A DNA stretch of 64,000 bases from an uncultured virus (IMG/VR IMGVR_UViG_3300025922_000011) (Duplodnaviria > Heunggongvirae > Uroviricota > Caudoviricetes). The notes beneath the pieces are model-generated. The model had not been told where the DNA came from and made no database searches. It saw only the letters and a list, made by a program, of their open reading frames with translations. The stretch is taken from the IMG/VR virus record IMGVR_UViG_3300025922_000011; one strand, written 5' to 3'. A program made the position numbers and the translations under genes. Position 1 is the stretch's first letter; each line of letters starts with the position of its first letter. Below are positions 5,261 through 58,899 of this stretch, in pieces.

Positions 5261-6217
5261 TTAATACGGTCCCGCTCCCGGCGGCTGAATGATTCGGTAG
5301 CCGTGGAAGCCGATGGTCAGGATCGCGTTGGGCAGACGAATGACCGGATCGGTGGATTCGGCGGAGGTCAGGTTGGGGTCGCTGATCCCTTCGTCGGCAT
5401 CCCATTGGCTGTCGATGAACGGGAAGTTGGCGTTCGGTACGCCGAAGCTCGAAACGTTGCCGTAGGGCGGGTTATTGACGTGCAGGGGCAGCACGTTGAA
5501 CGTCAGCACTTCGCCTCGCTCGAAGACATCGAGAGCGCCGAGGTTGAAGGGGCTGTTGATTTGCGTCGTCCAGAAGGTGCTCGGCACTGGCTGATTGCCG
5601 CGCGGGTAGCTCGATCCGGCCGTGACGAACTGGATACGGAAGTCGCCCTCCATGCTCCGCCACGCGCTTTCGTTGCTCGGGTTGATGACGTGCGGAGCGC
5701 CCGTGCCCGGGAAGGACACGGCTTCGGTCACCTGCGTGACGGGTCGGCCATCCATAATGTCCCACGCCGAATGGATCGGTCGATAGCGGCCGTACGAGCG
5801 AGACTGGAAGGTGACCGTGGTCGAGGTCGTTGGCGCGGTGAATTGAAACTGGTGCTGGCTGAGCAAGGTCGCATAGCGCGCGACCGCCACGAAGGGGCCT
5901 TCCTGGCTCACCATCACGGTGCCCTGCTGCACGCCGTTGACGCCCGCAGCAATCGGGATGTCTACGGTCATGTCCCACGGCACACGACGGCCCGGGATGT
6001 TCTCGACGTATTGGATCTTCGGATCCGCCTGGCGCGTCATCTGCGTGCGTTCCAGCATGCTCTTGAGCGCGACGTTCTCATTGAGCAATCGCTGCAGATC
6101 GCCCTGCATGTTACGGACGTTGGCGTCTAAGCCGGCCGCAGCTTCGAGCGCGCGGCGCGCTTGTGCGTTGGCCGTTCCGACTTGGCGGGCCAACTCCTGA
6201 AACTGATTCATCGTCAT
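5261..6217 (-). CDS. Putative jelly-roll capsid/penton protein with N-terminal coiled coil
   Basis: Heptad N-terminus; beta-rich body ending LTIGFHGYRI; fold is inferred. Confidence 0.5.
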   Translation of the reverse strand: MTMNQFQELARQVGTANAQARRALEAAAGLDANVRNMQGDLQRLLNENVALKSMLERTQMTRQADPKIQYVENIPGRRVPWDMTVDIPIAAGVNGVQQGTVMVSQEGPFVAVARYATLLSQHQFQFTAPTTSTTVTFQSRSYGRYRPIHSAWDIMDGRPVTQVTEAVSFPGTGAPHVINPSNESAWRSMEGDFRIQFVTAGSSYPRGNQPVPSTFWTTQINSPFNLGALDVFERGEVLTFNVLPLHVNNPPYGNVSSFGVPNANFPFIDSQWDADEGISDPNLTSAESTDPVIRLPNAILTIGFHGYRIIQPPGAGPY

Positions 6218-6365: not shown

Positions 6366-7127
6366 TTACTGCACGTCTCGGCTGTAGAGGCCGTCGAAGA
6401 TGAACGTGACGACCTTCTGCACGGCGTCGATCGCATTCAAGTTGTCCTTGAGGGACAACATGTTGCGCGAGCCTTGCGTGGTGCCGAACGTTGCAGCCTG
6501 ACCGCCAGCGCCCGCATTCATTGCAAAGATTTTGGCTTTGCAGATGATGTTCTGCCGCGGGGGCAGCAGAATTGCGCGAGCCAGGCGAAGGATGCCAGCG
6601 TGGCCGTCCCAGCCACTGTTTTGCCAGTGGATGAGGTCGGTCGCTGCGCCCATGTCGCCCGAGATGCCGCCGCCCGTGGGGAAGTACCAGGTCGGCATGT
6701 TGGTGATCGAGTCCTTGTTGCCGGTTCCGAAGTCCCAGTGCAACTGCTCCTCGGTCTGCCAGTGCAGACGGTACACGTCTTGGATCTGACCCGGTGCTTG
6801 ACCGAAAGCAACGCCAGCGGCCCCTGCCCAGGGTGCAAGTGCCGAGTAGTCACCATTCAGTGACACCGAACCGGTGTCCGTTCCATCAATGCGCTTGATG
6901 GAGTTGCGGTACCAGGTGAAGACGCGCAGTGCGAGCACGACGTGACTCTGATCGGACGGCAGCACGCTGCCTTGGATCAGATTGGTCGTCGCTTCACTAC
7001 GAGCGCCGTTGTTGGTGAACAGATCAGTGAAGTCGCCGATCAGGCCCTGTTCGAGACCTGCGGTGCGAATGAGTGAGTCCCAGAACGGCTGATGAACGCG
7101 CTCTCGGATGGTGACTACTTTTGCCAT
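6366..7127 (-). CDS. Putative major capsid protein, single jelly-roll type
   Basis: Strong AGGAG RBS before ATG 7127; QPFWD, TNLIQGSVLP, FPTGGG and terminal FDGLYSRDVQ motifs; downstream terminator. Confidence 0.55.
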   Translation of the reverse strand: MAKVVTIRERVHQPFWDSLIRTAGLEQGLIGDFTDLFTNNGARSEATTNLIQGSVLPSDQSHVVLALRVFTWYRNSIKRIDGTDTGSVSLNGDYSALAPWAGAAGVAFGQAPGQIQDVYRLHWQTEEQLHWDFGTGNKDSITNMPTWYFPTGGGISGDMGAATDLIHWQNSGWDGHAGILRLARAILLPPRQNIICKAKIFAMNAGAGGQAATFGTTQGSRNMLSLKDNLNAIDAVQKVVTFIFDGLYSRDVQ

Positions 7128-7290: not shown

Positions 7291-9045
7291 TTATCCGAAG
7301 ATGCCCTGACCTCCACTGGTTTCGAGCACGCCCGCAGGCAGCATTTCATGTGCCGCTTGCGATTGGCCCGCCGAGCGCGTTCCGGCCCAGAGCTGCGGGA
7401 CAGACTGTCCCGGGATCCAGGTCGAAGTGCTCGGTACGGTTGCGCCCAGGCCATTCATGCCACTGGCGAAGTACTCACCCATGCCGGCCGAAGCTTCGTA
7501 GGACTTGACGGCGCCGATGCCGGCGGCCGCTTCTGCGATCGAAAGCTCACGGTCGAGATTGCTCGAAGGGGAGACGTGGTTGGTGTTCATGGTCTCGGCT
7601 GCTCCCATGCCGGCGGCGGCTTGAAGCAAGTCGGGATTGCTCGTGTACGCTCCGAGGCCATTGACGCCTGAAGCGAAGTATTCACCGACGCCAGAGTTTG
7701 CGAAGTACTCGCCCACTCCTGCGGCTGGTGCGTAACGCGGCATGATCGAGCCGCCCAGGCCGTACATCGCAGCGATCCGCGCTGCGGTGCCGTCACCCGA
7801 AAGCATGGCTGCGATCTTCGGCTGATTGAGCTTGTCCAGGGCGAACATCAGCACGGTGTGCACGAAGCCCGCACCCAAGCCGCCCATGATGAGCCCCTTG
7901 GTCGTGGGATTCTTGACCACCTTTTGCGTGACGTACGCGCCGCCCACCGTCGCAATGAAGCTCGCGATGAGTCCATTGTACGGCTGCAGCATCTCCAGGC
8001 CCGATGCGGCCGGTGGCGTCGCGGTTTCGGCCTTGCCCGTGATGCGAGCAAGAACCTGATCGCGCACCACACCCGCGATGAGCTTTTCGGCCACCACACC
8101 GACCGTGATGAGACCGCCGGTCTTGAGCAGATCCATGATGAATCCACCCGGATTGCGACGCAGGCTCCGGTGGTGACGGCGCCGATTGGCCCGATGCCGC
8201 CTACGATTGCTCCGATGCCGACGCCTGTGCGAGCGACGCCTGCGATTGCTCACCATCGCGTTACGTCGATGGCTTCGACGCCGACGACGACGGGGATTGG
8301 CGCGCATCGCCTTGCGACGACGACGGCGACGACGCACCGGCGCCTTGGCTGCGCTTCGGCGACGACGACGAGTGCGACGCACGGGTGCACGGCGCGCGGA
8401 TCGACGACGGCGACGACGCACCGGGGAAGCCCGGCGTGCTGCGCTTCGGCGACGACGTCGGCGACGCACCGGCGCTTTACGCGCTACCCGGCGGCGCCTA
8501 CGATTGCTCACCATGGCGTTACGTCGATGCGATCGGCGACGAGTACGCTTTACCCGACGCTTGCCAGCCTTGCGACGACGGCCTCTTTTCGCTGCGCGGG
8601 AATGACCCACAGCAAAACGCACCGTGCGGCTGCCTGTTTTTCTTTCATGCCAGGCGTTACGCCGATGCCGGCGGCGCCGTCTTTTCTTCAACATGGTTGG
8701 TGTACTCCTGTGGACGGTCTTGCGGCGCGCGGGCGCCTTTCGAGCAGAAGGTTTCGGACGCCTTTTCAGGCGAGTAGCGAGCTGACGACGAGCGGCCGCG
8801 ACGCGCGCTGCACGCGTTCGGTGCCGGCTCATGCTGGTCTTGGCGCTGCGGCGCTTATTGGCCTTGAGCGGCACCAGGTTCTTGCGCAGCTTTGCGGCTC
8901 GGCCGTAGGCGCCGCGGCCATTGATCGCGGCGATGGTCGTTACGGCCGCACCGTTACGCTTCAAACGCCGTTTGGCCGTGTAGCCGTAGCTCTTCACGTC
9001 CTTGCGGCGGATTGGAAATGCTTTGCCTTTGGGTCGTCGGGTCAT
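7291..9045 (-). CDS. Arg-rich protamine-like DNA-condensing core protein with hydrophobic middle and GxG-repeat tail
   Basis: Long poly-Arg blocks, repeated RRNA/RANP/RRNP, hydrophobic helices, repeated GVGEYF/GLG; start 9045 or 9102. Confidence 0.7.
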   Translation of the reverse strand: MTRRPKGKAFPIRRKDVKSYGYTAKRRLKRNGAAVTTIAAINGRGAYGRAAKLRKNLVPLKANKRRSAKTSMSRHRTRAARVAAARRQLATRLKRRPKPSARKAPARRKTVHRSTPTMLKKRRRRRHRRNAWHERKTGSRTVRFAVGHSRAAKRGRRRKAGKRRVKRTRRRSHRRNAMVSNRRRRRVARKAPVRRRRRRRSAARRASPVRRRRRRSARRAPVRRTRRRRRSAAKAPVRRRRRRRKAMRANPRRRRRRSHRRNAMVSNRRRRSHRRRHRSNRRRHRANRRRHHRSLRRNPGGFIMDLLKTGGLITVGVVAEKLIAGVVRDQVLARITGKAETATPPAASGLEMLQPYNGLIASFIATVGGAYVTQKVVKNPTTKGLIMGGLGAGFVHTVLMFALDKLNQPKIAAMLSGDGTAARIAAMYGLGGSIMPRYAPAAGVGEYFANSGVGEYFASGVNGLGAYTSNPDLLQAAAGMGAAETMNTNHVSPSSNLDRELSIAEAAAGIGAVKSYEASAGMGEYFASGMNGLGATVPSTSTWIPGQSVPQLWAGTRSAGQSQAAHEMLPAGVLETSGGQGIFG

Positions 9046-9161
9046 CGTTCGGACAGAGCTCTGCGTCACCAGCAGGGCAGATCCGGCGACCCGAGGAGTC
9101 ACCTAGACAGATGCGGTACCTCGGACCCTACAACGCCCCGTCCATGTCCACCAAAAAGTCG

Positions 9162-9599
9162 CTATCGCGCCGAGCGATGTTTTTTCTTATAGAGGAGGTA
9201 GCCGCCCGTGACGGCCGCGGCCGCACCCACATAAAAGCGCCAATCTAGGCGGATTTGTGTGCCGCTTTCGACCAAGCGGCTCGGGCCCATGAGGTTGACC
9301 AGGCTTTGGACCATGCCGCTGCCTGAGGGCGCCTCGGTCGCTCCGAGGCCGCTCGTCGGAGCGGAGGCTCGGGCGGCATCGATCGCCTTCTGAGCGGCTG
9401 CCGCCGCGCCCGAGCTCACGAAATCCGGGGCTCCACCGGGCGGATAGGGTGCCGTCTGCAGGGTCGCGTAACGCTTTCGGTTGAGCTCGGCCCCGTACGC
9501 CAGGCCCGAGCTCTGGGCGCTCGATGCGGCCTTGGCGGCGGCTGCGGCCGCTGCGTCATCGCCCGGACCACTGAGGTATTGATAGCTCACAGCGTCCAC
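9162..9599 (-). CDS. Small membrane protein with GLG motif
   Basis: TSGLGA; C-terminal TM then KKKHR. Confidence 0.7.
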   Translation of the reverse strand: MDAVSYQYLSGPGDDAAAAAAAKAASSAQSSGLAYGAELNRKRYATLQTAPYPPGGAPDFVSSGAAAAAQKAIDAARASAPTSGLGATEAPSGSGMVQSLVNLMGPSRLVESGTQIRLDWRFYVGAAAAVTGGYLLYKKKHRSAR

Positions 9600-11086
9600 A
9601 CATACGCGAGCAGGCCCGCGCCTCCTGCCAGCGCTCCGTTATTGAGCGCGCTCGTTGCTGCTCGTGCCGCCGCTGCCTTCTTCTGGCTGTCGCTCATCAG
9701 CTTGTTCGTCTGCTCGCGGGCCGCGGTGATCTGCCCATCGTAGACGGCTTTCTGCATACCGACGACGGCCGCGGTCATCGCCAGATCGCCAGCGATGCGC
9801 ACCGTCAGCTGGCTCATGCCGACGAGTTTGGATTGCTCGAGCTCCATCGTCTGATTCATCGCCTCGATCCAAAAGTTCCGGTACTCGGCATCGGTGATCG
9901 CCGCGCGTGGAGCGGTGAATCCGCAATTGTAGTTACGCGCTGACGGCGGCTTCCAAGCCCAGCCGCGCGCTTGATACGCGGCGACGACGCGATTGGCGTT
10001 GCCGAAAATGTTTGCGGACGTCGGCGCGCTGACCGTAGTCGGCGGCGGATACGGGCAGCCAAATGGCTGCGGGCAGATGAAGCGGCACTTCTTGAAGTGC
10101 ACGGTGCCCTCCGAGTCACTAACAATCGTCTGACTCAAGCATGCATTTTCGAGCTTCTGCGCCCACGTGATCTGACGCACGGTGCGCGATTTGGCGTCGT
10201 ACACATTGACGGGCACGTAGGTCTTGGTGGTCGGATCCCAAACGCTCGTGAATGGCGTGCCGTCCCATTGCTGATCGAACCAGCGCAGGCCGAACTTCCA
10301 ACCGATCCGTAGCTCAATCGCTTCCCACTTTTGCTCGAGACTCAGGATGGTCTTGTCGTACGCATCCCAATACATGTGCCGCAGATCGGTGCACTGGTTA
10401 TTGGCATTGGCCGCCGTCTGCTGCAGTGCTTTCATCACCTGCTTAGTGTGCTCGACCCAAAGCTCTTCCTGCGTCTTGCCGATCGAAAAGACGTCATTGA
10501 CGGTATCGCCCACCATCGCGCCGAATTTGCCACCGAAGAAGGCACCGATCGGCGCGGGGATGCCGAATGCTTGGCACACCGCTGCTCCGCCAATAGCGCC
10601 CGCCGTTGCGCCGATCGCTTCCACATCCGCGCGGCCGAGCTTGCCGTCTTTGATCGCGTCGACGGTCACGGCGCAGATGCGCGGATCGACGCCGAGCGCG
10701 TACGCCATGCCAGCGCCCGCGATGTTGGTCAACGCCTTGTACGCTTCCTTCTTATTCTCCGGCAAATGCTCAGGCACGAAGCCTTCGAGACCGTACGCGC
10801 TCGCCAGCTCCTTGATCTCGCTATCGGCGAGCTTCATGCCTTCGGATTTGGCGTAGTTCGTCAGCGCCTCTTCGCCCCAATTGACGCAATCCTTGGTGCT
10901 CGTTAGATCGGGAATGCGCTTGGGTGCGTACTGCGCGTACTTATTGAAAGTGTCGGCCGCTTCTTTGCTCGTCGGCGTTTGGCTGAGCAGATGATCGACC
11001 GAGGCCTTCGCTTGCTTCTTCGCCTCGCCCTCGAGGTGATCGATCTGCGTACTGACTTGTGCTTTGACGGTGGCCTTGATGTCCAT
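9587..11086 (-). CDS. Large membrane-associated virion protein candidate
   Basis: 499 aa; glycine-zipper hydrophobic hairpin, Cys-containing domain, C-terminal TM. Confidence 0.7.
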   Translation of the reverse strand: MDIKATVKAQVSTQIDHLEGEAKKQAKASVDHLLSQTPTSKEAADTFNKYAQYAPKRIPDLTSTKDCVNWGEEALTNYAKSEGMKLADSEIKELASAYGLEGFVPEHLPENKKEAYKALTNIAGAGMAYALGVDPRICAVTVDAIKDGKLGRADVEAIGATAGAIGGAAVCQAFGIPAPIGAFFGGKFGAMVGDTVNDVFSIGKTQEELWVEHTKQVMKALQQTAANANNQCTDLRHMYWDAYDKTILSLEQKWEAIELRIGWKFGLRWFDQQWDGTPFTSVWDPTTKTYVPVNVYDAKSRTVRQITWAQKLENACLSQTIVSDSEGTVHFKKCRFICPQPFGCPYPPPTTVSAPTSANIFGNANRVVAAYQARGWAWKPPSARNYNCGFTAPRAAITDAEYRNFWIEAMNQTMELEQSKLVGMSQLTVRIAGDLAMTAAVVGMQKAVYDGQITAAREQTNKLMSDSQKKAAAARAATSALNNGALAGGAGLLAYVWTL

Positions 11087-11637
11087 TAGCCGACGATCCC
11101 GTCCTTCTCGATGTCGAGCTGTTTGCCGACGATGATGAGGTCGACGCCCGCACTACTGTAGACGATCAGGAACGCGTCGCCTGAGTCAGGGAAGCGCGAG
11201 GCGCCGAGCTTGGCGCGACTGATGTCCACTTGGTACAAGCCGTCATCGCCTTTGGGAATGCGGTAGCCGTCTGCTCCTCCTCGCTCATAGAGCTGCAGCT
11301 GCACGCCGAGGATATCAGCGAGCACGGCGAAGGAGTCGGGCAACGGACCGAGATCGATCATCGGGCCCACGACCGGCAATTGATGACTCGGTGTATCGTA
11401 GTGCACGAGAAACCCCGAGCGGGCCAGGACCCATTGCGGCCCTTCGGCGACGTGCTTGTAGTCTTCGAACGAGCCGCGCTTTTTCCACTTGTCGCTCGTG
11501 TACATCACCGCTTGGCAGGTACCGATCTCACGCAAGCGCCTCGGCCATTGCCATGGAACGGCGCGCTCGGTCTCCACCGGGCGATCGACGAACGTCTCGC
11601 GCAGGTTGCGCGCGAGATCTCGACTGTTCGCCCGCAT
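11086..11637 (-). CDS. Hypothetical protein
   Basis: 183 aa, TAATG-coupled to both neighbours. Confidence 0.75.
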   Translation of the reverse strand: MRANSRDLARNLRETFVDRPVETERAVPWQWPRRLREIGTCQAVMYTSDKWKKRGSFEDYKHVAEGPQWVLARSGFLVHYDTPSHQLPVVGPMIDLGPLPDSFAVLADILGVQLQLYERGGADGYRIPKGDDGLYQVDISRAKLGASRFPDSGDAFLIVYSSAGVDLIIVGKQLDIEKDGIVG

Positions 11638-12182
11638 TAAAGACTCTCTCCGCTACCCGTCTGATAGCGACGCACGGTCCCCTCACTCGAAAACTTCTTG
11701 CCGCGCGTCACAGCGTAATCGTGCCGTCCTTTGGTGGCACGGATGCGCGCCGTGGTCCGGGCCGTGTCGAGCTCGTAGGGACCGAACGGGCCCTCGCCGC
11801 GCAATGGCCGCCCATCTCGGCCCAATGGCCAAACGTAGTAGCTGCCGCTGTTGGCGCTCATCCGGTACTCACGCCGATCGGTCTCGGGTGCTGGCTCGGC
11901 TACGGCCACCCAATCGCCCGCGTGCGAGCGCTCCATCGTGTACTCCGCACCCTTGAAGAGCTCAGGGGCAACCGATTCGAGCGCTTGGCGCTGGAAATGA
12001 TCCGCTTTGCGCGCGCCCATCGCCCGAGCGGGCTCGTTCGTGTAGAAGGGCAGATCCGTGTAAATGCGGCTTCGGTCGCTCGTCGGGGCGAGGCGGACCA
12101 GGACATCCTCAGTGGGGGTGACAATGCGCACCTCCACGGCATCAGGACGACGGGCGATCCGCACCTCGTTTCGACGCATCAT
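11637..12182 (-). CDS. Hypothetical protein divergent from the CRISPR leader
   Basis: Likely start MMRRNEV at 12182; coupled to the downstream gene; no Cas motifs recognised. Confidence 0.65.
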   Translation of the reverse strand: MMRRNEVRIARRPDAVEVRIVTPTEDVLVRLAPTSDRSRIYTDLPFYTNEPARAMGARKADHFQRQALESVAPELFKGAEYTMERSHAGDWVAVAEPAPETDRREYRMSANSGSYYVWPLGRDGRPLRGEGPFGPYELDTARTTARIRATKGRHDYAVTRGKKFSSEGTVRRYQTGSGESL

Positions 12183-12319
12183 GGGGGGCAGTGTAAGCCG
12201 AGGAGCGTGGTGGGCCCAAAAAAGAGCCTGCGAGCGGTTCGGTGCTGCTTGAACTGCCGTCACCGCTCGCAATCGCCCAATGCTTGTTGTAAGCTCTGCT
12301 ATACACGGATGCCGCATCG

Positions 12320-12409
12320 CAGTTCACCCCGGCTCAGCGTTGGGGAGAAAGCGTACCGCTCGCAAAACGGTCGCTAACCCCGCGATTCGGCTGGTTTCTC
12401 TGACAATCT
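12320..12409 (+). promoter_or_regulatory. Putative CRISPR leader
   Basis: Non-coding, adjacent to the end of the array with identical repeats. Confidence 0.45.
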
Positions 12410-13133
12410 AGCTCAGTGGTTGCTCGGTCACCCGAAAAACGAGACGAGCGCAATGCGTGGATAACCGACCCTCGGCGCGTCGAGCTCAGTGGTTGCTCGG
12501 TCACCCGAAAAACGAGACGGCCGCAGGCACGGCCCGCGGTGCGGAGCGCGTCGAGAGCTCAGTGGTTGCTCGGTCACCCGAAAAACGAGACCACGGAGGC
12601 GGCGGCGGTGCTCACGCAGGGCGATGAGCTCAGTGGTTGCTCGGTCACCCGAAAAACGAGACGCCCGCTCCGCCGCCAGCTCGACCACTCCGCTCGACTC
12701 AGCTCAGTGGTTGCTCGGTCACCCGAAAAACGAGACGCTTGGGTGGACATGGATGGGGCGTTGTAGGGTGTCGAGAGTTCAGTGCTCGCTCGATTGCCGT
12801 AAGATCGAGACTTGAGCTCAGTTGCTTCGTCGGATTTTCATTTTGAAGTCAGCTCAGTGGTTGCTCGGTCACCCGCAAAACGAGACGCAAAACGGCGCTC
12901 GATATCCGCGACTTGAACACTCAGCTCAGTGGTTTGCTCGATCACCGTAAGATCGAGACCGATCGAGCCGCGCATACTTCAGTGGTTGCTCGATCATCCT
13001 CAAACGAGACCGTTTGGCACGCAGACGCCGTGCGCTCGAGACTTCAAGATCTCAGTGGTTGCTCGGTCACCTAAGATCCGAGACGATTGCGGTTGGATTC
13101 GTGTCATTGTTTGCTCGGCAGCGGAGCCGAGAC
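12410..13133 (+). CRISPR. CRISPR array without cas genes; 36-bp repeat AGCTCAGTGGTTGCTCGGTCACCCGAAAAACGAGAC
   Basis: Identical repeats at 12410, 12483, 12556, 12627 and 12701; variants at 12776, 12851, 12923, 12976, 13049 and about 13101; unique spacers mostly 35-39 nt; orientation inferred from distal degeneration. Confidence 0.93.
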
Positions 13134-13197
13134 ACCTAGACGCAGAGACTCGCGGGACGTGATAGCTCCGTCTGACGGAGACAAGCCGTGGCTGGAC

Positions 13198-14784
13198 TTA
13201 ACGCAGCATGCGTACTGGGTAGCCCTTACTTCGAACACCCTTAGCGGACGGAGAAGTGAATGCTGCGCTGGTGATCTCCGCAGCGCGGTGCACGATGGCC
13301 GCTCCTGTCGCATATGCCATCGTCGCCGATTGTAGAACCGGCCTTCCCACTACAACGCCACCCGCTTGGGTGACGCCTGAGATCGTGCTCATGCTCAACA
13401 TCACCGGTGCGCTGGCCGCAATGGCGGACGCACTGGCTTCTATCTGCGCGATCGATGAGCTTTGAGCTTGCTGCGCCGCGATCCCCGCGGCGTCGCTCGC
13501 AAGCAATGCGCTCGCCGTAAGTTCTGGGCTTCGAGTATCGACGCCTGCTGCTCGTCCACTGACATTGGCCGCCGCACCACTTTCCGGAGCCCGTGCGGCA
13601 ATCGTCGCGCTGTCGGCGGCGGCGCGCGTTGCTACGCTCTGCTCGGCATCGGATGCATCGACGCTCACGCCCGTAGCGCTGGCGCGCGGGCTGACCGCGG
13701 ATGCGCTACTCTGCGCGACGACGGCCGCTGCGCTCGCGTAGGCGCAACTCGGTACCGATTGCTTCGGCGAGCACGCAGTGAGCGCGGTCGTTACCGCATG
13801 CACGCGACTGGCAACACTGCTCTTGGCACTGCGCGCGTGAAGCGGTGTGCCGTCGGCTCTCGCGGTCGCTGTGGCCGTGCAGGATGCTTGTACGCTCAGT
13901 AGCGATGCGGTCGTTGTACGGGCTGAGGCTGCACTCGATTGCGCCGTTGCGGGCGCCATGACCGCGGCTCCCGTTGCATTGCTTTTGGCCGCGACAGAGT
14001 CGGCGGCCGTGGCACTCTTGATGCTGACGCTGGCCGCGTAAGCTTTAGTGGCGGAGCTCGTGCGACCGGCAACCGAATCCACCGCGGCTGGCGTAGCCGA
14101 TACCTGCGTGGCTACTTTAGAGGCGGTCGCTGGCGCAATGACACGAGCGGCGGATGCGAGCGCTGTCGTCGCGGACGCTTCGGCACTCGGGCGCGCTGCG
14201 ATCATCGCGCCACTGGCTTTGGTCAGCGTCGCGTCTACATCGGCGGCTGCACGCGCCTGAATGCTCGCGGGTGACGCCGACGCCTTCGTTGCGACTACGT
14301 CCGAGCTCGCGCGCGCATTGAGGGTCGCGGGGGACGCCGAGGCCTTCGATGCGCTCGGGTCCGAAGTCGCACGGGCCGCGATGGCGGCTGGCGTAGCCGA
14401 TACCTGCGTGGCTACTTTAGAGGCGGTCGCGGGCGCAATGACACGAGCTGCACTGCCGAGTGCTGTCGTCGCTGACGCTTCTGCACTCGGGCGCGCCGCG
14501 ATCATCGCGCCACTGGCTTTGGTCAGCGTCGCGTCTACATCGGCGGCAGCGCGCGCTTGGATGCTCGCGGGTGAGGCCGAGGCCTTCGTTGCGACTACGT
14601 CCGAGCTCGAGCGCGCAGCGATGGTCGCTGCCGCTGCGTTCGCTTTGGTCGCTACTCCTTGTGCCGCAGTTGTGACAGTGACCGCAGCGGGCGATGCACT
14701 CGCCGCGACCGCTACGCTCGCGATCGCAACCGGACCGTTGAGATTATTCGCGAAGAGTAGAAAGGAGCCGAGGCCGCCGGCCAC
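13198..14784 (-). CDS. Ala/Ser/Thr-rich repetitive fibre-like protein
   Basis: 528 aa low-complexity repeats with an internal 100-aa duplication. Confidence 0.7.
   Translation of the reverse strand: MAGGLGSFLLFANNLNGPVAIASVAVAASASPAAVTVTTAAQGVATKANAAAATIAARSSSDVVATKASASPASIQARAAADVDATLTKASGAMIAARPSAEASATTALGSAARVIAPATASKVATQVSATPAAIAARATSDPSASKASASPATLNARASSDVVATKASASPASIQARAAADVDATLTKASGAMIAARPSAEASATTALASAARVIAPATASKVATQVSATPAAVDSVAGRTSSATKAYAASVSIKSATAADSVAAKSNATGAAVMAPATAQSSAASARTTTASLLSVQASCTATATARADGTPLHARSAKSSVASRVHAVTTALTACSPKQSVPSCAYASAAAVVAQSSASAVSPRASATGVSVDASDAEQSVATRAAADSATIAARAPESGAAANVSGRAAGVDTRSPELTASALLASDAAGIAAQQAQSSSIAQIEASASAIAASAPVMLSMSTISGVTQAGGVVVGRPVLQSATMAYATGAAIVHRAAEITSAAFTSPSAKGVRSKGYPVRMLR
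14084..14610. repeat. Intragenic direct repeat, period 300 bp
   Basis: GCGGCTGGCGTAGCCGATACCTGCGTGGCTACTTTAGAGGCGGTCGC at 14084 and 14384, with similarity continuing more than 200 bp. Confidence 0.9.
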
Positions 14785-14785
14785 T

Positions 14786-15445
14786 TTATGCGGCGACTTC
14801 TTCCCACGTCATCGACGCCATGACGATGGGGCTCGTGCCCGCTGCAGCCGCAAAGATGCCGACCGCTCCACCGGGCGGAACAATGATGTCGCCCGCCGTC
14901 TCTTCGTTGACGGTCAAGTTGGCATTCGCCGCGCCCGCGCCCGTCGTCGGGCCACCGATGAAGCGAAGGAGTAAGCCTGCACCGCCACCGGTCCATGCCG
15001 ATCCGGTGAACGTTTTGGCCGTGCTACCACCGGTGATGAGCGTTCCGTTGTTGATCGCTCCGTTACCGCCACCTGCAGTGATGCCCGCATTGGCCGCGAG
15101 ATATCCCCAAACCCAACCACCGGCGCCCGCCGTGCCGCTCGCCATCTGTGTGGAGGCACGCAGGATCACACAGTTCTTGCCAGAACCGGACGGATTGAAG
15201 ATGCCGACGATCGGTGAGCCTGCGCTCGCCGAAAAGACGTTTGCCGCGGCAACCGTCACACCGCCAGCCGCAGTGCTGAGCGACCAAACGCTGCCTTGCC
15301 GCACAGCTTCCTGATAGCGGCCGTGACCATCGGCCGTGACGAGAGCACCGGTGTTATCCGAGCGGGCCGCCTGAATGGCTCCTTGGATGAGCCCGGCGGA
15401 ATATTTGTAGAGTTCAACTAGCATCTTACGAAACCTTTCCTGCAT
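14786..15445 (-). CDS. Gly/Ala-rich virion fibre-associated protein
   Basis: 219 aa beta-rich, ends MTWEEVAA; lies in the fibre module. Confidence 0.6.
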   Translation of the reverse strand: MQERFRKMLVELYKYSAGLIQGAIQAARSDNTGALVTADGHGRYQEAVRQGSVWSLSTAAGGVTVAAANVFSASAGSPIVGIFNPSGSGKNCVILRASTQMASGTAGAGGWVWGYLAANAGITAGGGNGAINNGTLITGGSTAKTFTGSAWTGGGAGLLLRFIGGPTTGAGAANANLTVNEETAGDIIVPPGGAVGIFAAAAGTSPIVMASMTWEEVAA

Positions 15446-15746
15446 CTAGCGAAGACTCGATGTCTTCAGCATCGTTGCGCGGAACTCGAACACCCGCGCT
15501 CGTGAGTAAGTAAGCCATATTTGTGTTGAGTAGCCGAAGCTCGATCAGTATCGCTTTGAGCATGCGAACCTGATCATCTTGATAGCTAGCTGCTGCAGAC
15601 AACGGATTGTCAGCCGTGACGGGACCGCCACTGACATTCGCCGCACCCGTATAGATCTTCGAAACGGCAAGTTTCTGCGTGCCTAGATCCTCGGTGACGA
15701 TATCGTCACCGCCCGTGCCTGGATTGAGAACTGTGCCGTCAGCCAT
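15426..15746 (-). CDS. Hypothetical phage protein
   Basis: MADGTVLNPGTGGD N-terminus; ILIELRLLN helix. Confidence 0.65.
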   Translation of the reverse strand: MADGTVLNPGTGGDDIVTEDLGTQKLAVSKIYTGAANVSGGPVTADNPLSAAASYQDDQVRMLKAILIELRLLNTNMAYLLTSAGVRVPRNDAEDIESSLDAGKVS

Positions 15747-15752
15747 GTGCGC

Positions 15753-16442
15753 TTAGCCCTCGCGAATCGTGGTCGTGGTTTCGAGCCGAGGGATGACGTT
15801 GATGGCCATCGTGATCGGTTGAATGAGTTGCGCAAAGCCCGCACCATCGGCCGTGATGTTGAGCGTTGCGCCGCCTTGCGAGGTGGACACCGTGATCGCA
15901 TTGCCGCTGACGGTTTTCACCCAGTAAACCGTGCCCTCGGTGATGCCCGCGGGCAGCGATAGGCCTTGGAGCGAAAGAAACTGCACTCGGTCGTCGACCG
16001 AGAAGGCCTGATTGGGGACCGTGATCAAATCGGAACTCGCCACAGCGGTCATCGGAACCGGGGCGGGACCAATGCCGCCGCGATAGAGGATCTCGCCGGC
16101 ACCCGAAAGGGAGGTTCCTAAGGCCCAATGGGTGAGTGGGTTGCCTGGGCTTGCGGTGCATTTGGCGTAATCGACATTCGCCGCTGGCGAGACGGCATTG
16201 CCTGAAACCGTGAAGCCGCCGCTCGAGCGCGCGGCGCCGATGCGCGCGTAGGGCGTGTACGCCGCTTCGTTCGTCGTCTGATCGCCCGCCGCCCCTGGAT
16301 CGGCCGTATGCAGACTGAAGTAGAGGCTACCGGCCGCCGTGCTGCCCCGAAGCCCAGTGGCATCTCCGATGTTGGCCGCATTGGTGTTGTTGAACACGAG
16401 CAGCATGTAGGCATTGTCGAAGGCGTCGCTCTTAGCGGTCAT
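15753..16442 (-). CDS. Phage tail-fibre-like protein
   Basis: LYFSLHTADPG...TTNEAAYTPYAR motif, common in phage tail-fibre genes. Confidence 0.7.
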   Translation of the reverse strand: MTAKSDAFDNAYMLLVFNNTNAANIGDATGLRGSTAAGSLYFSLHTADPGAAGDQTTNEAAYTPYARIGAARSSGGFTVSGNAVSPAANVDYAKCTASPGNPLTHWALGTSLSGAGEILYRGGIGPAPVPMTAVASSDLITVPNQAFSVDDRVQFLSLQGLSLPAGITEGTVYWVKTVSGNAITVSTSQGGATLNITADGAGFAQLIQPITMAINVIPRLETTTTIREG

Positions 16443-16469
16443 GGTGGTCCTTTACGTTTCTGTTCGTCA

Positions 16470-16892
16470 CTACCAGGCGCGTGCTGTCGAGGGTATTGCT
16501 TCCACATTCTCAGCCAAATACTCGGAGTAAGTGTCGGCTCGCGATTTGACGAGCAGCCTCTCTTCGGTGGGCGCATCGGTCGCATCGAGCGTGACCTTGT
16601 AGATGCCACCCACATAGCCGTACATCTCGGCCGAGCTGATGGGGACGAGGCTCAATTTGTAACGCACCAGTTGCAAAAAGAGACGGTCCACGGTCTCTGG
16701 GTCAGGCTCGGTCAGGATTTCTAACAGGCTCGCGCCCTGGGGGATATTCTCGGTAGCCACTCCGTTTTCCCAGAGAACGTTCATTTTTCCAGTATCAATG
16801 GTGGTGATGCGGCCGAGCACGGGTGACTGGCCCAAGCGTCCGGTCGGGCCGAGCGTGACGCTCAGCCGAACGAGATCGCCTACATTAGCCAC
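16470..16892 (-). CDS. Hypothetical protein
   Basis: 140 aa ORF co-oriented with the operon. Confidence 0.6.
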   Translation of the reverse strand: MANVGDLVRLSVTLGPTGRLGQSPVLGRITTIDTGKMNVLWENGVATENIPQGASLLEILTEPDPETVDRLFLQLVRYKLSLVPISSAEMYGYVGGIYKVTLDATDAPTEERLLVKSRADTYSEYLAENVEAIPSTARAW

Positions 16893-16928
16893 AGCGCGTT
16901 CATCCTAGGATCAAACCGGTGTGGAAGC

Positions 16929-17246
16929 CTAAAACTTAGCTTTCCTACCGATCATCCAGCCCGCGAGCGCGGCAAGCCCGAGCCAGACCACACTCGGCAG
17001 GCTGTCCGATAAGCCGCTCAGCGTGAGCCCGGCGCGATCGAGTGGCGCGATCACGCCTTTGGCGAACTTGCCCTTTCCGATGAGCTTCGCGCTCGACGGC
17101 ATCGGCCGGCCCGCTTCCGTACTGGGCACACCGAGCGCCGAGGCCACCGGGAGCTTGGGAGTCGGTAGATCATCGCCGAGCCCTCGCCGCTCGGGCGTCT
17201 CGAAGTAGTCGTAGCCACCATCACCGCGAAAGCGCGAGTAGATCAA
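16929..17246 (-). CDS. Small membrane protein with GLG motif
   Basis: RRGLGD; C-terminal TM plus RKAK. Confidence 0.7.
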   Translation of the reverse strand: MIYSRFRGDGGYDYFETPERRGLGDDLPTPKLPVASALGVPSTEAGRPMPSSAKLIGKGKFAKGVIAPLDRAGLTLSGLSDSLPSVVWLGLAALAGWMIGRKAKF

Positions 17247-24220: not shown

Positions 24221-25720
24221 TCAATCGATCGGATAAATCTGATAGGTCGTCACCCGGCGCAACATCGAGCCTTCGTTGGTGCCTGCGACGGGGTCGAGCA
24301 CGATCCATTGGCCGCTTTTGGGCTCTTTCGCTCGAGCGAATACGTGGCTGTAATGGCCAGGTCGGCCGAAACCAACGATCACGAATTGGGTGTCGCGGCC
24401 AAGCTGGCGGCACAGCGTGCCGATCCACAGAGCTAGATCGTCACACTGGCTTACGGTCACGTCATGCTCAGGCAGGTAAACATGGTGGTCCTCCGTTTGG
24501 ATGTCCCAGCAGGGCACCTGCGCGACTTCTCGGTAGATATGCTTGACTCGCAAACACTTTTCAGCTCGATCGCTATTTCTGCGGCGAGTTGATAGGCGCC
24601 AAATCGGATTGGGTCCAAGGCCGCCGTGATTCTCTAGGTAGCTATACCCGCAAGTGATGCCGAACATCTTGTGCAAGACGCGCATCTGAACCGCTAGCTC
24701 ATAGCTTGTTGTCGTTAAAGTACGCCCTGGTCCACGAGTATTCTGAGAGCTGTCCGCCATTACGCCGCGTAGTGTTTCGGCTGCAGCAGTCTCGTCGAGA
24801 TTGATACTCAAAAGGTGCTTATTTACCGCTGTATGACCCATCTGCTGCATGCGCAGTGCCCACTCTTTGTCGTTGACCGCGATGTATTTTCGGTGCCATC
24901 GCGTGGGTAATCCTAGGCGCTGTGCAATTGCTTCGACATCCCTCTTTTGTTCTTCTTTCGGGCAACCATCCTGACCACTGATCGCAAATCGGCTGTCTTC
25001 TGCCCAACCGTCCGCAACGAAGAGTCCTTCGAGGTACGCACGATCTGGATCCATCGACTCAGTGCCAAATGGAATGCGCTCTGGAGTCGTCAGGATCATG
25101 CCTTCAACGACGTTAGAGACTCGGATGCGCTCTTTCTTGCGCTCCGCTAACGGACACGTCTTTGGGCTGCAGTTGCGGCTACCGTGCTCATGTCGCGAGC
25201 AGGTGAGGACATAGACGTGATGATCTGCAGTGAGCTTCAGATCCGAGCCGTTGTTCAGCCGCAGTACGTCAACCGTGAGTGTTCCCTTGTAGGCTGTCGC
25301 CTCCACCTGAACCCATTTGTCCAAGCCCCAGATCCGTTGACCCGGTTGAAGCTCTTGCACTGGAACCAGACGATGCCCCTCTGCCAAGATGAGCGTATTT
25401 TCCGGGAAACAATCCCCCACTGCGCGATTGTATTGGACAATCTGCTGAGTGATACGCTCCGGATCCTGCACTTGCTCGACGCCCAGAGCATCGTTGGAGT
25501 AGCGGATGTATTCGACGGCAAAGTTACGGATCGCCAAGAGTTCTCCGAGGTAATCCTTGGGCTGCAGATCGCGCACGATGCTGTTTTTGAGCGAGTTGAC
25601 CAGGACGCTCTGCTCGCCCCGCGGCCCCTTGGCCATCGCGATCATCGTGCCGACCGTATCCTGTGGACCCCGGAATGGCCGGATCGTGTGGGGCGGGGAA
25701 TCGGCGAGCGGAGCGGTCAC
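24221..25720 (-). CDS. Transglutaminase-like cysteine protease, intein-containing
   Basis: Removing the intein yields 177 aa with GDCDD, SHVF and W-x-x-LDP (Cys-His-Asp triad). Confidence 0.85.
   Translation of the reverse strand: MTAPLADSPPHTIRPFRGPQDTVGTMIAMAKGPRGEQSVLVNSLKNSIVRDLQPKDYLGELLAIRNFAVEYIRYSNDALGVEQVQDPERITQQIVQYNRAVGDCFPENTLILAEGHRLVPVQELQPGQRIWGLDKWVQVEATAYKGTLTVDVLRLNNGSDLKLTADHHVYVLTCSRHEHGSRNCSPKTCPLAERKKERIRVSNVVEGMILTTPERIPFGTESMDPDRAYLEGLFVADGWAEDSRFAISGQDGCPKEEQKRDVEAIAQRLGLPTRWHRKYIAVNDKEWALRMQQMGHTAVNKHLLSINLDETAAAETLRGVMADSSQNTRGPGRTLTTTSYELAVQMRVLHKMFGITCGYSYLENHGGLGPNPIWRLSTRRRNSDRAEKCLRVKHIYREVAQVPCWDIQTEDHHVYLPEHDVTVSQCDDLALWIGTLCRQLGRDTQFVIVGFGRPGHYSHVFARAKEPKSGQWIVLDPVAGTNEGSMLRRVTTYQIYPID
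24446..25411 (-). mobile_element. Intein (322 aa) with LAGLIDADG homing endonuclease domain
   Basis: Block A CFPENTLI, block B LTADHH, YLEGLFVADG, block F CWDIQTEDHHVYL, ends VTVSQ/C. Confidence 0.92.
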
Positions 25721-26447: not shown

Positions 26448-26511
26448 TGCGGATCGGACGGTCTCGGCAATCAGCCGAGCTTGAATTCCTCGATCGACCG
26501 GTAGTCTCGGC

Positions 26512-27696
26512 TCATTGAGCGGCCGAGTTTGCTTCGTCCCGGTCGGTGACCGTCTCGATGCAATCGAGCTTGTAATCGGAGAACCAGCGTTTGATGGATT
26601 CGGCCACCGCTTGCGCCAATGCAGGCGGCATGGCTTGACCCAGCATGCTCCAGCGTTCCGTTTTGGTCTTAGCCACGAAGATCCAGTCTTCGGGAAAGCC
26701 CTGCAGGATGGCGCCCGCCTTCTCGCTCAACGCAATCGCATTGGGCCCACTGCGCGCCTTCCACACGCTGTCATTGTGACCCGGCGGTTGCAGACGCTCG
26801 TCGCATGCGATGCCCGTCGCCGGTCGATCCCATGGCCACTCGAGCCGAGCGTTGCGCTTGGTACCGATGGTGCGCGTCGGCTCATCCATGCCGCTCTTGC
26901 GATCTTTCCAATTGGGACGCGCGAGCACCGCTCCGCCTTTCTGGTCGCGCGGCGTACCGGTGAGGATCGTTTGCGCGGGTTCTTCCAGTTCGCTTGGTGG
27001 ATGTTTGCCTCGGGGCTTGATGCGCAGCGGGCGGCCGATCTCTTTGGCGTCCAAGTGTTGCAGCGCATCGCGGCAGGTCACCCAGGGCTTACGCGCGTCA
27101 TTGAAGAGCGCGAGCTGCTTCAACAATTCTGGATCGCAATGCGTCGGGGGTTGCCAGCGAATGCAATCGCTCTGCTTGGGATGACCAAACCAGAACGGTC
27201 GCACGCGATGCTGCGGCACGCCGTACGATGCAGCATCGAGACGCCGGTAGTCGATGCAGTAGTTGTTACTCAACCGACCCATCGTGCGCCGCAGGACATC
27301 TGCATTGGTGGCATCATCGAGACCCGGAACGTTGCCGATGAGCCAGGTGGTGGGTCGGAGACTTTCGATGAGCTCCACCGTCGTCGTCAGCATGTCACGC
27401 GGATCATCGGTGCCCTTGCGCTTGCCTGCGCGTGACCACGGCGTGCACGGAGGATCGAAGATCCATAGATCGATTTGCCTGCTCGCTGTCATCTCGGAAG
27501 CAAGACGACGGAGGTCGCGTGCATCGATCTGGATCGGTCGATGGCCGAGATTCTTCTCGTAGCTCGCGCACGCGTTCGTGTCCCAATCGAAGGCCAGCGT
27601 CACGGGCAGGCCCGCGCGGCGAAAGCCTTCGCTCATGCCACCTGAACAACAAAAGAGTTCCCAAACATTCATCGGTTTTCTCGAGCTCAGAGTCAC
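26512..27696 (-). CDS. DNA cytosine-5 methyltransferase-like protein (atypical motifs)
   Basis: ELFCCSGG, PPC, YGVPQHRVR, LQGFP, GQAMPP. Confidence 0.88.
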   Translation of the reverse strand: MTLSSRKPMNVWELFCCSGGMSEGFRRAGLPVTLAFDWDTNACASYEKNLGHRPIQIDARDLRRLASEMTASRQIDLWIFDPPCTPWSRAGKRKGTDDPRDMLTTTVELIESLRPTTWLIGNVPGLDDATNADVLRRTMGRLSNNYCIDYRRLDAASYGVPQHRVRPFWFGHPKQSDCIRWQPPTHCDPELLKQLALFNDARKPWVTCRDALQHLDAKEIGRPLRIKPRGKHPPSELEEPAQTILTGTPRDQKGGAVLARPNWKDRKSGMDEPTRTIGTKRNARLEWPWDRPATGIACDERLQPPGHNDSVWKARSGPNAIALSEKAGAILQGFPEDWIFVAKTKTERWSMLGQAMPPALAQAVAESIKRWFSDYKLDCIETVTDRDEANSAAQ

Positions 27697-28064
27697 AGAT
27701 CCGGGTAGTGCTCACCGTCATCGGTCGACAGACCATCTTTGGTCCAATAGCCGAGCAGTCCCACCACCATGTTCTGGACCATCGCATCCGGATCGAAGTC
27801 CATGACGCGGCCGTTCATCGTCGTGGCTCTGACGGCGTAGCGTGTTGCTTCACGTATCTGCTGGGCCAGCTGATCGCGCGCTACTCCTACGCCGACGCGC
27901 ATCGGTGCGGGTGGATCGTCTGGATGCTCGGCGTAGAGCCAGTGGTCCTTCGGCAGCGCCGTCGTCATTGTCGCAAAACCACTACCGTCTGGCAGAATGA
28001 CCGCCTCATGGATCGTGCCACCAACCGCCGCGGCTATTTCTACAACGGGATGCTTGCCTACCAT
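27693..28064 (-). CDS. Hypothetical phage protein
   Basis: GTGA overlap with the methyltransferase gene; 123 aa. Confidence 0.65.
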   Translation of the reverse strand: MVGKHPVVEIAAAVGGTIHEAVILPDGSGFATMTTALPKDHWLYAEHPDDPPAPMRVGVGVARDQLAQQIREATRYAVRATTMNGRVMDFDPDAMVQNMVVGLLGYWTKDGLSTDDGEHYPDL

Positions 28065-28251
28065 CGAGTTCTCCTTTTTCGCTTGTACCGCGAATCTGCG
28101 GACGTCTCGGCTCTGTTAGCCGAGCTAACGGCTGGATCTGTCGGTGCCCGTCCTGGGCCAAAAGGGCCAGGCTCTTTCTGTTGTAGCAGCGCGCTCCGTC
28201 CCGCTTCGAACGGGCTCGGGATTATTGATTGGCAGCGTCTCAACCCGGGGG

Positions 28252-38469: not shown

Positions 38470-38867
38470 TTGCTCTCCGTTATGGGTGAGGCGGTTTTAT
38501 CCGCCGCCTCACCCTGGCAAATTGAGCGATTGGTAAAAAAACGAGAAGGTATTACGGCGAGGGGGACCGCCGTCCCACATCCCACCGAACGGTCTCGGCC
38601 GATCATTAGCCGAGCTATCATGAGTAGGACTGGATTGCGGTCTAATCACTGCAGTACCGTCTCTCGTGGTGTGTCCCCACAAGGGACTCTGAGCACGCAG
38701 ATCTGCGTCCTCACGATGCACCGCACCGCTCAGCGCGCGAGGTATAATTCGCGCGAGATCGTCACCCTTACACTAACTTGATCGCCTAGGCCAAAAAATC
38801 TGCATCACGCCGATGACATGATTTGTCAGCGTGATTAGCGGGATAAAGCTTGACGTCGCTAGCGATG

Positions 38868-48740: not shown

Positions 48741-49622
48741 TTGAAAATCATTCACAAATATAGTGTTCGGAAAGGGCGGCCTACATTGGAGAAGAAGCGA
48801 CAGCTCAGTATTGAACTGAGCAAAGAAGTAGATGGTCTGGAGATGGGGGTTCTGGCCGATGGTACGGCATTTCTATCGATGCGCGGGTTGGCGAAACTTT
48901 GCGGGATCGCGGTGAGCACGCTCAGTGAGAACTGCAAGGCTTGGCTTGAGGGGAACCGTTCCGGCCGATTCGGTCAATTTGTACAACGTAACGGTGTTGG
49001 TGACGCAAGCCTCTATATGCGTCAGGAGATTGCGGGCAGCGTCGTTTATGTCTTCTCTGATCAAATCAGCACACTCTTTCTTGAATACTATTCATTCGAA
49101 GCACCGAATCCCACAGCCCAAGCGAACTATCGCACCGTAGCGCGCGCTGGCCTCAAGCTCTTCATCTATACAGCTCTTGGGTACGACCCGAGCCGTCTCG
49201 TCCCGCCCGCATGGCGGCACTTTCATGATCGGGTAAGTCTCGCGAGTGCACCAGCGAACTATTTCAGTGTCTTCAAGGAGACATCGGAATTTGTGGTCAA
49301 CGCAATTCGAGCTGGGCTCCATGTTGATGAGCATACGGTTCCGGACATCAGTGTCGGTAAATTCTGGTCAGCATACTGGGAAGAGGTGCGTCGCTGGTGG
49401 CGCACGCGCACTGAAGTCTGGATACGCAACTCAATGGTTAGTTGCGATCACAGCGTGTTTGACGACTACGTACACAGCCCCTGGTTTCGTAGCGACGGAA
49501 CGAAAGCGTCGTGTCGGCTATCGCTGCGCCTGGACCGCATCGCTTTCGCGATGATGCATCAGCCGCTGCGCAGCCTACCGGAGAATGTCGTGACGCTGCA
49601 TCAACGAGGGCACTACCGCTAA
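48741..49622 (+). CDS. BstA-like anti-phage protein, C-terminus apparently replaced
   Basis: EMGVLADGTAFLSMRGLAKLCG, FHDRVSL, YFSVFKE, PDISVGKFW; visibly lower GC than flanks; family recalled from memory. Confidence 0.6.
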   Translation: MKIIHKYSVRKGRPTLEKKRQLSIELSKEVDGLEMGVLADGTAFLSMRGLAKLCGIAVSTLSENCKAWLEGNRSGRFGQFVQRNGVGDASLYMRQEIAGSVVYVFSDQISTLFLEYYSFEAPNPTAQANYRTVARAGLKLFIYTALGYDPSRLVPPAWRHFHDRVSLASAPANYFSVFKETSEFVVNAIRAGLHVDEHTVPDISVGKFWSAYWEEVRRWWRTRTEVWIRNSMVSCDHSVFDDYVHSPWFRSDGTKASCRLSLRLDRIAFAMMHQPLRSLPENVVTLHQRGHYR

Positions 49623-52665: not shown

Positions 52666-52748
52666 GCTTGAGCCGTACTAGCTCGCGTGCTCGAGCGAGA
52701 CGCGATGAACCAACTCTTGAACCTGCTCGTTGGTGAGGAAACGAGACT

Positions 52749-57689: not shown

Positions 57690-57725
57690 TTTACGGTTAC
57701 AATCGACCGAGCGAGCGAGACAACC

Positions 57726-58121: not shown

Positions 58122-58127
58122 CCGGCC

Positions 58128-58643: not shown

Positions 58644-58899
58644 CACATACTGTCTCAGTTGATTCACTGAGCTGATTCGAATTCGATGTGCGAGAAGCAG
58701 TCTCCGCGCCTCGCGCTCTCTCGGCTCTGCCGCCGAGCTGGCATTCAATGCGCTCGTTGGTGGTCGCCGTTTCAATGAAACGGGCTTCTGCTGGTTAGCG
58801 CGGCACGCTGTCTCGTGGAAGTCGTTCGAGCACGCATTTCTTGCGTCCAGCATACACGACTTTTTGCCCCAACTCGGCGCTCGCGTTACCTTCGAGGGC

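Follow-up and report, generated by a model that had tools for sequence, protein, structure and literature searches.

The stretch of viral DNA analysed here (64 kb; hereafter the window) carries a CRISPR array and no recognisable cas gene, which raises the question of whose effector the array serves and how it gains its spacers. The array showed regular repeats, unique spacers, a leader and polarised acquisition, as expected of a CRISPR array (Table 1). Repeats R1-R5, which start at 12410, 12483, 12556, 12627 and 12701, are followed by the variants R6 at 12776 (10 mismatches), R7 at 12851 (1), R8 at 12923, R9 at 12976, R10 at 13049 (6) and R11 at about 13100-13133. The initial annotation had counted 10-11 repeats, five of them identical at the leader end, and our count of 11 with R1-R5 identical agrees with it. 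The spacer length of 35-39 nt given there holds for eight of the ten spacers and not for S8 and S10, which are 15-16 nt long. It had also described the array as lying inside the structural region and opposed to the surrounding genes, and the array does sit in the virion gene block, antisense to the capsid genes. No second array was detected within the 64-kb window, and neither Rfam matches nor tRNAs turned up there.

Table 1. Positions of the array, its parts and related features in the window.
Feature	Position	Strand	Remarks
CRISPR array	12410..13133	+	11 repeats, 10 spacers; flanking genes on - strand
Leader and divergent intergenic region	12183..12409	+	precedes repeat 1
R1-R5 and S1-S4	12410..12736	+	identical 36-nt repeats; spacers of 37, 37, 35 and 38 nt; newest, strain-specific
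Spacer S5	12737..12775	+	39 nt; near match to own DNA at 9119-9157
Variant repeats R6-R8 with S6 (39 nt) and S7 (36 nt)	12776..12959	+
Trailer: S8 (16 nt), R9, S9 (38 nt), R10, S10 (15 nt), R11	12960..13133	+	spacers common to three strains
Variable insert with array	11637..16929	-	about 5.3 kb, in virion block
Imperfect S5 match	9119..9157	-	gap just upstream of Arg-rich core and capsid genes; 5' flank GAC (not TTN)
253-aa single jelly-roll capsid-like protein	6366..7127	-	conserved; marker for finding relatives
Second jelly-roll capsid-like protein	5261..6217	-	N-terminal coiled coil; pLDDT 64
Two-unit handle cassette, 3' end of DNA methyltransferase gene	26461..26528	-	units 26504-26528 and 26461-26480
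Solitary intergenic handle upstream of ORF 27693-28064	28104..28125	-	z -2.68
Solitary handle between sliding-clamp and replication-initiator genes	38592..38615	-	7-bp stem, z -1.95
Two-unit intergenic handle cassette	52681..52747	+	units 52681-52701 and 52725-52747; co-oriented with flanking genes

When metagenomes were scanned with the repeat core, seven loci were obtained, of which three carried the array and four were single chance matches. One of the three (L043) is 99.98% identical to window positions 2413-23084 and possibly comes from the same source, so it does not count as independent; the other two, L041 and L039, are different strains whose array flanks are 97-98% identical to the window. 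The spacers at the 12410 end differ in both strains, S1-S4 and S5 being absent from each, and the trailer spacers S8, S9 and S10 (the last by inspection) are common to the window, L041 and L039. The L041 array has up to about 19 spacers, and L039 has 8 of its 11 spacers in common with L041. Because the leader-side spacers differ and the oldest ones are common across strains, we conclude that the array is still gaining spacers at its 12410 end. The same polarity places the leader at that end with + strand reading and rules out a minus-strand orientation of the array. S6 (12812-12850), which holds a piece resembling the 5' end of the repeat, was found in neither L041 nor L039. A 26-nt match of R11 to a gene start in L002 was dismissed as chance.

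The carrier is probably a large, tailless bacterial virus, since the window encodes two jelly-roll proteins and gave no match to a terminase, portal or HK97 capsid in PHROGs and Pfam. PF03237 and PF05065, the two families searched there, were likewise found in none of five relatives with terminal repeats, the controls being positive. The model of the 6366-7127 protein (pLDDT 71) best matched the SPV1 capsid (6oj0; Z 6.4, rmsd 4.1, 134 aligned), and that of the 5261-6217 protein matched the PBCV-1 capsid at Z 8.0 and SPV1 at Z 7.5, the latter equal to non-viral jelly rolls; these scores are middling for both models, and model confidence is moderate. A Foldseek search with the capsid model gave nothing at E 0.001 or better. 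The window also encodes DnaB, a DnaC-like loader, a sliding clamp, ParB and a methyltransferase (PHROGs, Pfam). Since the genes at 16929 and 11086 adjoin each other in all of the first five relatives, the array lies in a variable insert, together with an Ala-rich gene (13198-14784), a Gp80-like gene (15753-16442) and the ORF 11637-12182.

Several further features of the window were noted. The Ala-rich gene beside the array contains a 245-nt direct duplication (91%; 14084-14628), many small proteins of the virion block (1650-22447, - strand) have a Gly-Leu-Gly-like motif and a C-terminal hydrophobic segment, and the Arg-rich core-like protein at 7291-9102 has repeated RxN motifs. The gene at 24221-25720 (- strand), 'transglutaminase-like' by inspection, was present in 17/17 relatives and contains an intein in this virus (matches to Hint and LAGLIDADG). 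A BstA-like abortive-infection gene lies at 48741-49622 (+; PADLOC E 2e-63), a response-regulator receiver gene at 59738-60088 (+) and an H-NOX haem-binding gene at 62853-63428 (+).

No cas gene was found in the window with PHROGs and Pfam (89 ORFs), PADLOC (91 ORFs) or NCBIfam (27 ORFs), and a Cas12m profile and tblastn in all six frames detected no Cas12m there, which bears out the initial statement that no cas gene is recognisable in the 64 kb. The + strand ORF 11391-12377, which ends at the leader, was rejected as a Cas12 remnant by profile, tblastn and PADLOC/NCBIfam scans. The genome measures at least 101 kb; the window makes up ~62% of it, and about 37 kb lie outside: the L043 contig (101,180 bp) adds about 32 kb on the left and 5 kb on the right, and two further contigs of the virus measure 102,537 and 103,475 bp. 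Contigs from four runs contain the virus, and these extend the sequence at least 5.6 kb to the left of position 1. At 9147-9179, beside the S5 match, contigs of two runs end, which may reflect strain variation or a homopolymer artefact.

We then turned to the relatives of the virus. The 6366-7127 protein had 708 homologs, which led to 29 viral loci and 26 searchable records; 17 of these were read whole, leaving out G004 (locus repeat and protein matches as in G005) and eight fragments of 9-75 kb. Arrays were present in 13 of the 17 relatives and absent from G006, G011, G014 and G021. All 13 array-bearing relatives encode an effector of the RuvC TnpB/Cas12 type beside an array, at a distance within 200 bp in 11 of the 12 measured and of 693 bp in G019 (G026 was assessed by inspection only). 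Seven effectors are Cas12u1/V-M-like (G001, G002, G003, G005, G007, G008 and G023), with the reservation that a PADLOC model labelled Cas12f scores about equal to Cas12u1 on these seven proteins; five others are Cas12f/TnpB-like, and that of G020 is a CasPhi (E 7.8e-133). The best PDB match of the G005 effector was Cas12m (23vw, E 5.8e-46). The Cas12u1-type proteins are 490-700 aa long, and in some of them the first RuvC residue is changed, to N in G007 and G008 and to R in G002; according to the accessible part of one study, binding without cutting is common to Cas12m proteins whose triad is D-E-D, H-D-D or N-D-D (PMC11013384). In G002, G003, G005 and G023, extra arrays with the same repeat lie 2.6-114 kb away from the effector. 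Cas1 was found in none of the 17 relatives (the control was positive in 7/14 genomes) nor in the window. G006, with 74% capsid identity and terminal repeats, has neither array nor Cas12m, indicating that the module can be lost.

Four of the relatives showed peculiarities of their own. The CasPhi/Cas12j of G020 (82618-85662; L117), a 126-kb, probably tailless relative, has 775 aa and lies with an 8-repeat array beside capsid genes. G005 has three highly degenerate arrays with short spacers (29255-29846, 112743-113600 and 124400-125628), in which no two repeats are alike but all retain the stem, and G023 has two cas12m-like genes (8790-10550 and 57346-59200) together with many extra arrays in one genome. 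A cluster of tRNA-like sequences was seen in G002 (173700-174850; L017).

The repeats of the window themselves point to a Cas12m-like partner. All seven repeat types in the window have a 3'-AC, a G at -21 to -24, a CTCG/CGAG stem of 4-7 bp and a drifting loop, and the same handle layout was seen in 6/6 viral repeats adjacent to Cas12m (T for G in one). The Cas12m2 scaffold, as given in the accessible part of its description, pairs G(-23) with A(-2) and C(-22..-17) with G(-8..-3) (PMC10442227). The 36-nt repeat fits this scaffold with G(-23/-24):A(-2), a stem and a 3'-AC, the terminal stem of R1-R5 being only 4 bp and their predicted minimum-energy fold a different structure. One repeat copy in L041 retains the stem pair as G-U. 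Among the repeats of the 13 relatives, the closest were those of G007 (21.5), G008 (19) and G003 (18), and all of these adjoin cas12m-like genes.

Copies of the handle also occur away from the array, a feature that, like the near match of S5 to its own genome, the initial annotation did not contain. Six copies with a stem of at least 5 bp lie outside the array, compared with 0-2 in eight shuffles; five of the six are intergenic, and they are co-oriented with their genes. In the 17 relatives, whose sequences are longer, this pattern was counted 0-6 times, so the excess is modest. The window contains no target for the sequences behind these satellite handles, the best agreement being 13-15 of 20. 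Such handles would fit a virus with a cognate effector. The initial annotation had also considered an RNA anti-CRISPR. This does not fit a growing array of 10 spacers; the main locus is not a solitary repeat of the Racr kind, and the handles at 38592 and 28104 are solitary. In G008, three repeats lie immediately upstream of cas12m (28999-29111; L107), possibly as an autoregulatory mini-array.

On these sequence features, we consider that the array is probably the remote part of a type V-M (Cas12m-like) system which the virus itself encodes, the effector gene lying in the part of the genome outside the window. It would work like type V-M; class membership turns on a cas12m gene, which is absent from the window. 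The genes of the window map onto the closest relative, G003, from 62 kb down to 1 kb and then round to 126 kb, so that the unseen part corresponds to G003 62-126 kb, the region that contains its cas12m and both its arrays. The initial annotation had held that cas genes on the same element beyond the window would speak against its reading, and such a gene is likely to be present there.

The alternative that survives best, which we hold to be unlikely, is an orphan array of Cas12m type, the effector of which was lost or never present; its crRNAs would be loaded in trans by a Cas12m that the host or a co-infecting relative provides, or remain unused, while a host integrase still adds spacers. This would agree with the lack of an effector within the 64 kb and with the other contigs of the virus, of which three (101.2, 102.5 and 103.5 kb) could represent almost whole genomes. 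The searches linked none of them to a Cas12m: none of the 62-64 homologs listed or the 29 candidate clusters looked up lay on a 101-103-kb contig, a search of representatives gave none there, and no loci were obtained when proteins encoded at both ends of the window served as queries. The repeat pattern matched a single place in each of two 101-102-kb contigs and showed no effector-adjacent array of the same core, although such a pattern missed the effector-adjacent array in 2/3 trials on relatives. However, none of the 13 array-bearing relatives is without an effector, and the handle has been retained in old repeats and satellites. Moreover, the relatives with terminal repeats measure 112-179 kb, so the 101-103-kb contigs may be incomplete.

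The targets of the spacers were then analysed. We searched 262 spacers against 19 sequences (the window, L041 and the 17 relatives) at a threshold of at least 76%. Matches were obtained for 14 spacers, with 30 hits compared with 0, 0, 1 and 0 in controls, one repetitive spacer supplying 14 of the 30. Twelve of the 14 matching spacers target their own genome, and they are spread over 8 of the 14 array-bearing viruses; these targets differ among the relatives, with matches of 36/36 in G001, 34/36 in G005 and 36/38 in G007. Type I-G may use a TTN PAM, as Cas12m does. TTN was found beside 3 of the 12 own-genome near matches (P 0.007), and each of these three is mismatched within the first 6 nt; the own-genome matches with a perfect seed lack TTN. 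The G007 match (1850; L100) lies in its own cas12m with a TTC flank, and the same spacer matches the cas12m of G008 at 33/38.

In the window, S5 matched its own genome at 30/39 positions ungapped and at 27/28 in the core, with mismatches at positions 1, 2, 5 and 18. With these seed mismatches and no TTN PAM at its own site, the carrier would escape. The pattern is as expected for a spacer directed at a sister virus, a point partly shown by the match itself. A comparison of the spacers with viruses, proposed at the outset, yielded no perfect protospacer for any spacer of the window: the nine besides S5 had no target, and S5 had only its near match in the own genome. No protospacer was found for the S5 core in viral contigs or for the L041 array in GenBank phages, and a plasmid search gave only two weak matches, in the leader/repeat region. 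The initial suggestion that the array attacks competing elements fits these data in that, judging by the S5 near match, it probably acts against competing viruses.

The near self-match bears on a further alternative, namely self-regulation, in which a non-cutting Cas12m with partially matching spacers such as S5 and with handles in transcripts would tune the virus's own replication and capsid genes. The position of the S5 match upstream of the core and capsid genes would suit this, as would the co-oriented intergenic handles, one of them before the replication initiator, the own-genome matches of G001, G005 and G007, and the three repeats upstream of the G008 cas12m. Nevertheless, S5 is specific to this strain, mismatches in the seed and a GAC flank mark its match in the own genome, the sequences next to the satellites lack a target in the window, and the own-genome targets vary between relatives; we therefore regard self-regulation as improbable.

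How the array acquires its spacers is suggested by its leader, which consists of ACCGCTCGCAA (12355-12365), 9 nt, TAA (12375-12377) and TCTCTGACAA (12397-12406), with further ACCGCTCGCA copies in the leader region at 12262 (+) and 12238 (-). No sigma-70 promoter was found at the leader. CTCGC stands at -51 in the window and at -50 to -52 in 14 of 18 viral arrays (chance about 0.06 per array), a count in which G019 was read on the wrong strand and carries the motif at its other end; its placement in viral arrays is independent of the effector type. Species genomes contained CCGCTCGCAA-N9-TAA at 18 loci, and the only one of these before an array is a type I-G locus with cas3g, cas8g and a Cas4/1 fusion. 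Among 301 Acidimicrobiia genomes, 14 matches were obtained, of which 3 precede I-G-type arrays at the same spacing and 11 are chance; across these genomes the motif was not enriched over a reversed control. In total, three cellular I-G arrays from two Acidimicrobiia genomes carry the motif at about -51 to -53; CCGCTCGCAA-N9-TAA about 51 nt before repeat 1 as a feature of type I-G is thus derived here from three arrays, not from print. The CTCGCAA-N9-TAA motif of the window leader is as in cellular I-G arrays, and its presence in both viral and cellular arrays points to adaptation by a host Cas4/1. Since the virus lineage is without Cas1, we infer that an I-G-like Cas4/1 integrase of the host would load the array. 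In one cellular I-G locus (L188:4730-7722), a non-cas insert of about 3 kb lies between cas4/1 and the leader.

The initial annotation had gone further and assumed that the array hijacks the host Cas system, with a repeat that could identify the host. In this model, the array would feed a host class 1 effector, for example an I-G Cascade, with guides or with antisense decoy repeats. Apart from the I-G-like leader, the repeat in reverse complement (hairpin, then ACTGAGCT) looks by eye like the I-G layout (hairpin, then ATTGCGGC), but the same reverse resemblance is seen in repeats beside viral cas12m genes. In the reading direction set by the leader, the last bases of the repeat are CGAGAC, in place of the ATTGCGGC of cellular I-G arrays. 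A strict repeat pattern had no match in 185,579 species genomes, a collection from which the host may be missing, and none in viral contigs. The repeat search in metagenomes gave only the viral locus and the four single chance matches, and an Atlas search with the sliding clamp revealed no host; the repeat has thus not identified one. Together with the effectors that all array-bearing relatives supply themselves, these results make a host class 1 effector very improbable. What stands of the hijacking idea is acquisition, on the grounds of the I-G-like leader and the absence of Cas1 from the window and 17/17 relatives; for interference it probably does not hold, given the Cas12m handle, the type V effectors of 13/13 array-bearing relatives and the synteny of the unseen part with the region of the G003 cas12m.

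That the locus is an assembly chimera or a non-CRISPR repeat, as some short spacers, the degenerate trailer repeats and the breaking of short-read contigs within the array might suggest, is extremely improbable, since the same flanks enclose the array in three assemblies, two of them different strains (L041 and L039), with polarised spacer turnover, so that the array is virus-borne as first described and the chimerism then considered is contradicted.

These results are consistent with the following mechanism for a virus-encoded type V-M system. New spacers enter at the 12410 end, as the strain comparison showed. A type I-G-like Cas4/1-Cas2 integrase of the host would insert them, recognising the CTCGCAA-N9-TAA leader. 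Transcription of the + strand would start from the array's own leader; a Cas12m-like protein would then bind the G-stem-loop-stem-AC handles and process the transcript into single crRNAs without a tracrRNA. To judge from published Cas12m biochemistry, the complex would bind PAM-flanked DNA without cutting and block transcription or replication. Sister viruses would be among the targets, S5 being directed upstream of the core and capsid genes, which the near match shows in part, and competing relatives would be excluded.

A wider reading joins these elements, and as a whole we find it unlikely. Tailless jelly-roll bacterial viruses of 100-180 kb would plug any type V effector (Cas12m, Cas12f/TnpB-like or CasPhi) into the host I-G integrase through one standard leader; here, a non-cutting Cas12m would regulate the virus's own programme, with S5 directed at the start of the capsid operon and the handles before the replication initiator and other genes acting as effector-binding or processing switches in its own mRNAs.

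Among known systems, type V-M Cas12m (MmCas12m2, GoCas12m and MsCas12m; PDB 8hhl, 23vw), as far as the accessible parts of two studies describe it (PMC10442227, PMC11013384), is alike in the 36-nt repeat, the handle with G:A pair, stem and 3'-AC, the lack of adaptation genes and the Cas12u1-type proteins of the relatives. It differs in that here the array is remote from any effector, none being seen in the window, the carrier is a tailless jelly-roll virus rather than a plasmid or prophage, and handles are scattered between genes; the occurrence of Cas12m in some prophages is mentioned in the accessible text of another study (PMC11656645). In the accessible portion of the report on MvCas12m of myxophage MV-1 (bioRxiv 10.64898/2026.09.14.751636), a virus-encoded system of the Cas12m lineage likewise has an array, no cas1/2/4 and a repeat unlike that of the host. 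MV-1, by the same portion, differs in being a tailed phage of the Caudoviricetes; its single array, of 8 spacers, is adjacent to the effector, and no targets were found. Its authors there doubt host-driven acquisition and call direct use of host machinery unlikely, whereas here the strain comparison shows acquisition and the leader points to an I-G integrase.

SPV1/SPV2 (Portogloboviridae) and phage mini-arrays share with the present locus a leader-bearing viral array away from cas genes, according to the accessible parts of their descriptions (PMC6858448, PMC11656645). SPV1 also gave the best fold match for the 6366-7127 capsid-like protein. As the same part of the SPV account states, the spacers of SPV1/SPV2 match the sister virus while the carrier's own site is mutated (PMC6858448); S5 shows a like pattern, and its exact sister target was not found in viral contigs. 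The mini-arrays, in the portion available, have 1-2 spacers compared with 10 here, a size that sets the present array apart from them (PMC11656645), and here the repeat occurs in no cellular genome scanned and the lineage supplies its own type V effectors. The accessible text on Cas12r-CRISPR of Thermus Lalka phages (bioRxiv 10.64898/2026.04.20.719267) describes a type V system that phages carry at a variable site within the structural gene cluster, with polarised acquisition ascribed to host adaptation; it differs by an active nuclease beside the array and a link to host I-E, in place of the remote, Cas12m-like and I-G-like arrangement here.

In the literature surveyed, which lay mostly outside subscription journals, we came across neither a description of this leader motif nor one of type V CRISPR in the tailless lineage. 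Type IV-A3 systems reportedly acquire spacers in trans, silence competitors without cutting and borrow the host's adaptation module; the likeness would lie in a mobile-element CRISPR that borrows host adaptation, and the difference in their being multi-subunit class 1 systems on plasmids. For spacer gain by viral type V systems without cas1 (Cas12m, Cas12f-like and CasPhi), a candidate integrase that can be tested is named by the one leader motif, which keeps the same distance to the array both in cellular I-G loci and in viral loci with several types of effector. A viral array that appears to be cas-less can belong to an effector encoded at a distance by the same virus; since it may serve the virus's own effector, its repeat need not identify the host. 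With these findings, the range of type V CRISPR would include a lineage of viruses that are probably tailless and in which the spacers are often aimed at near-kin.
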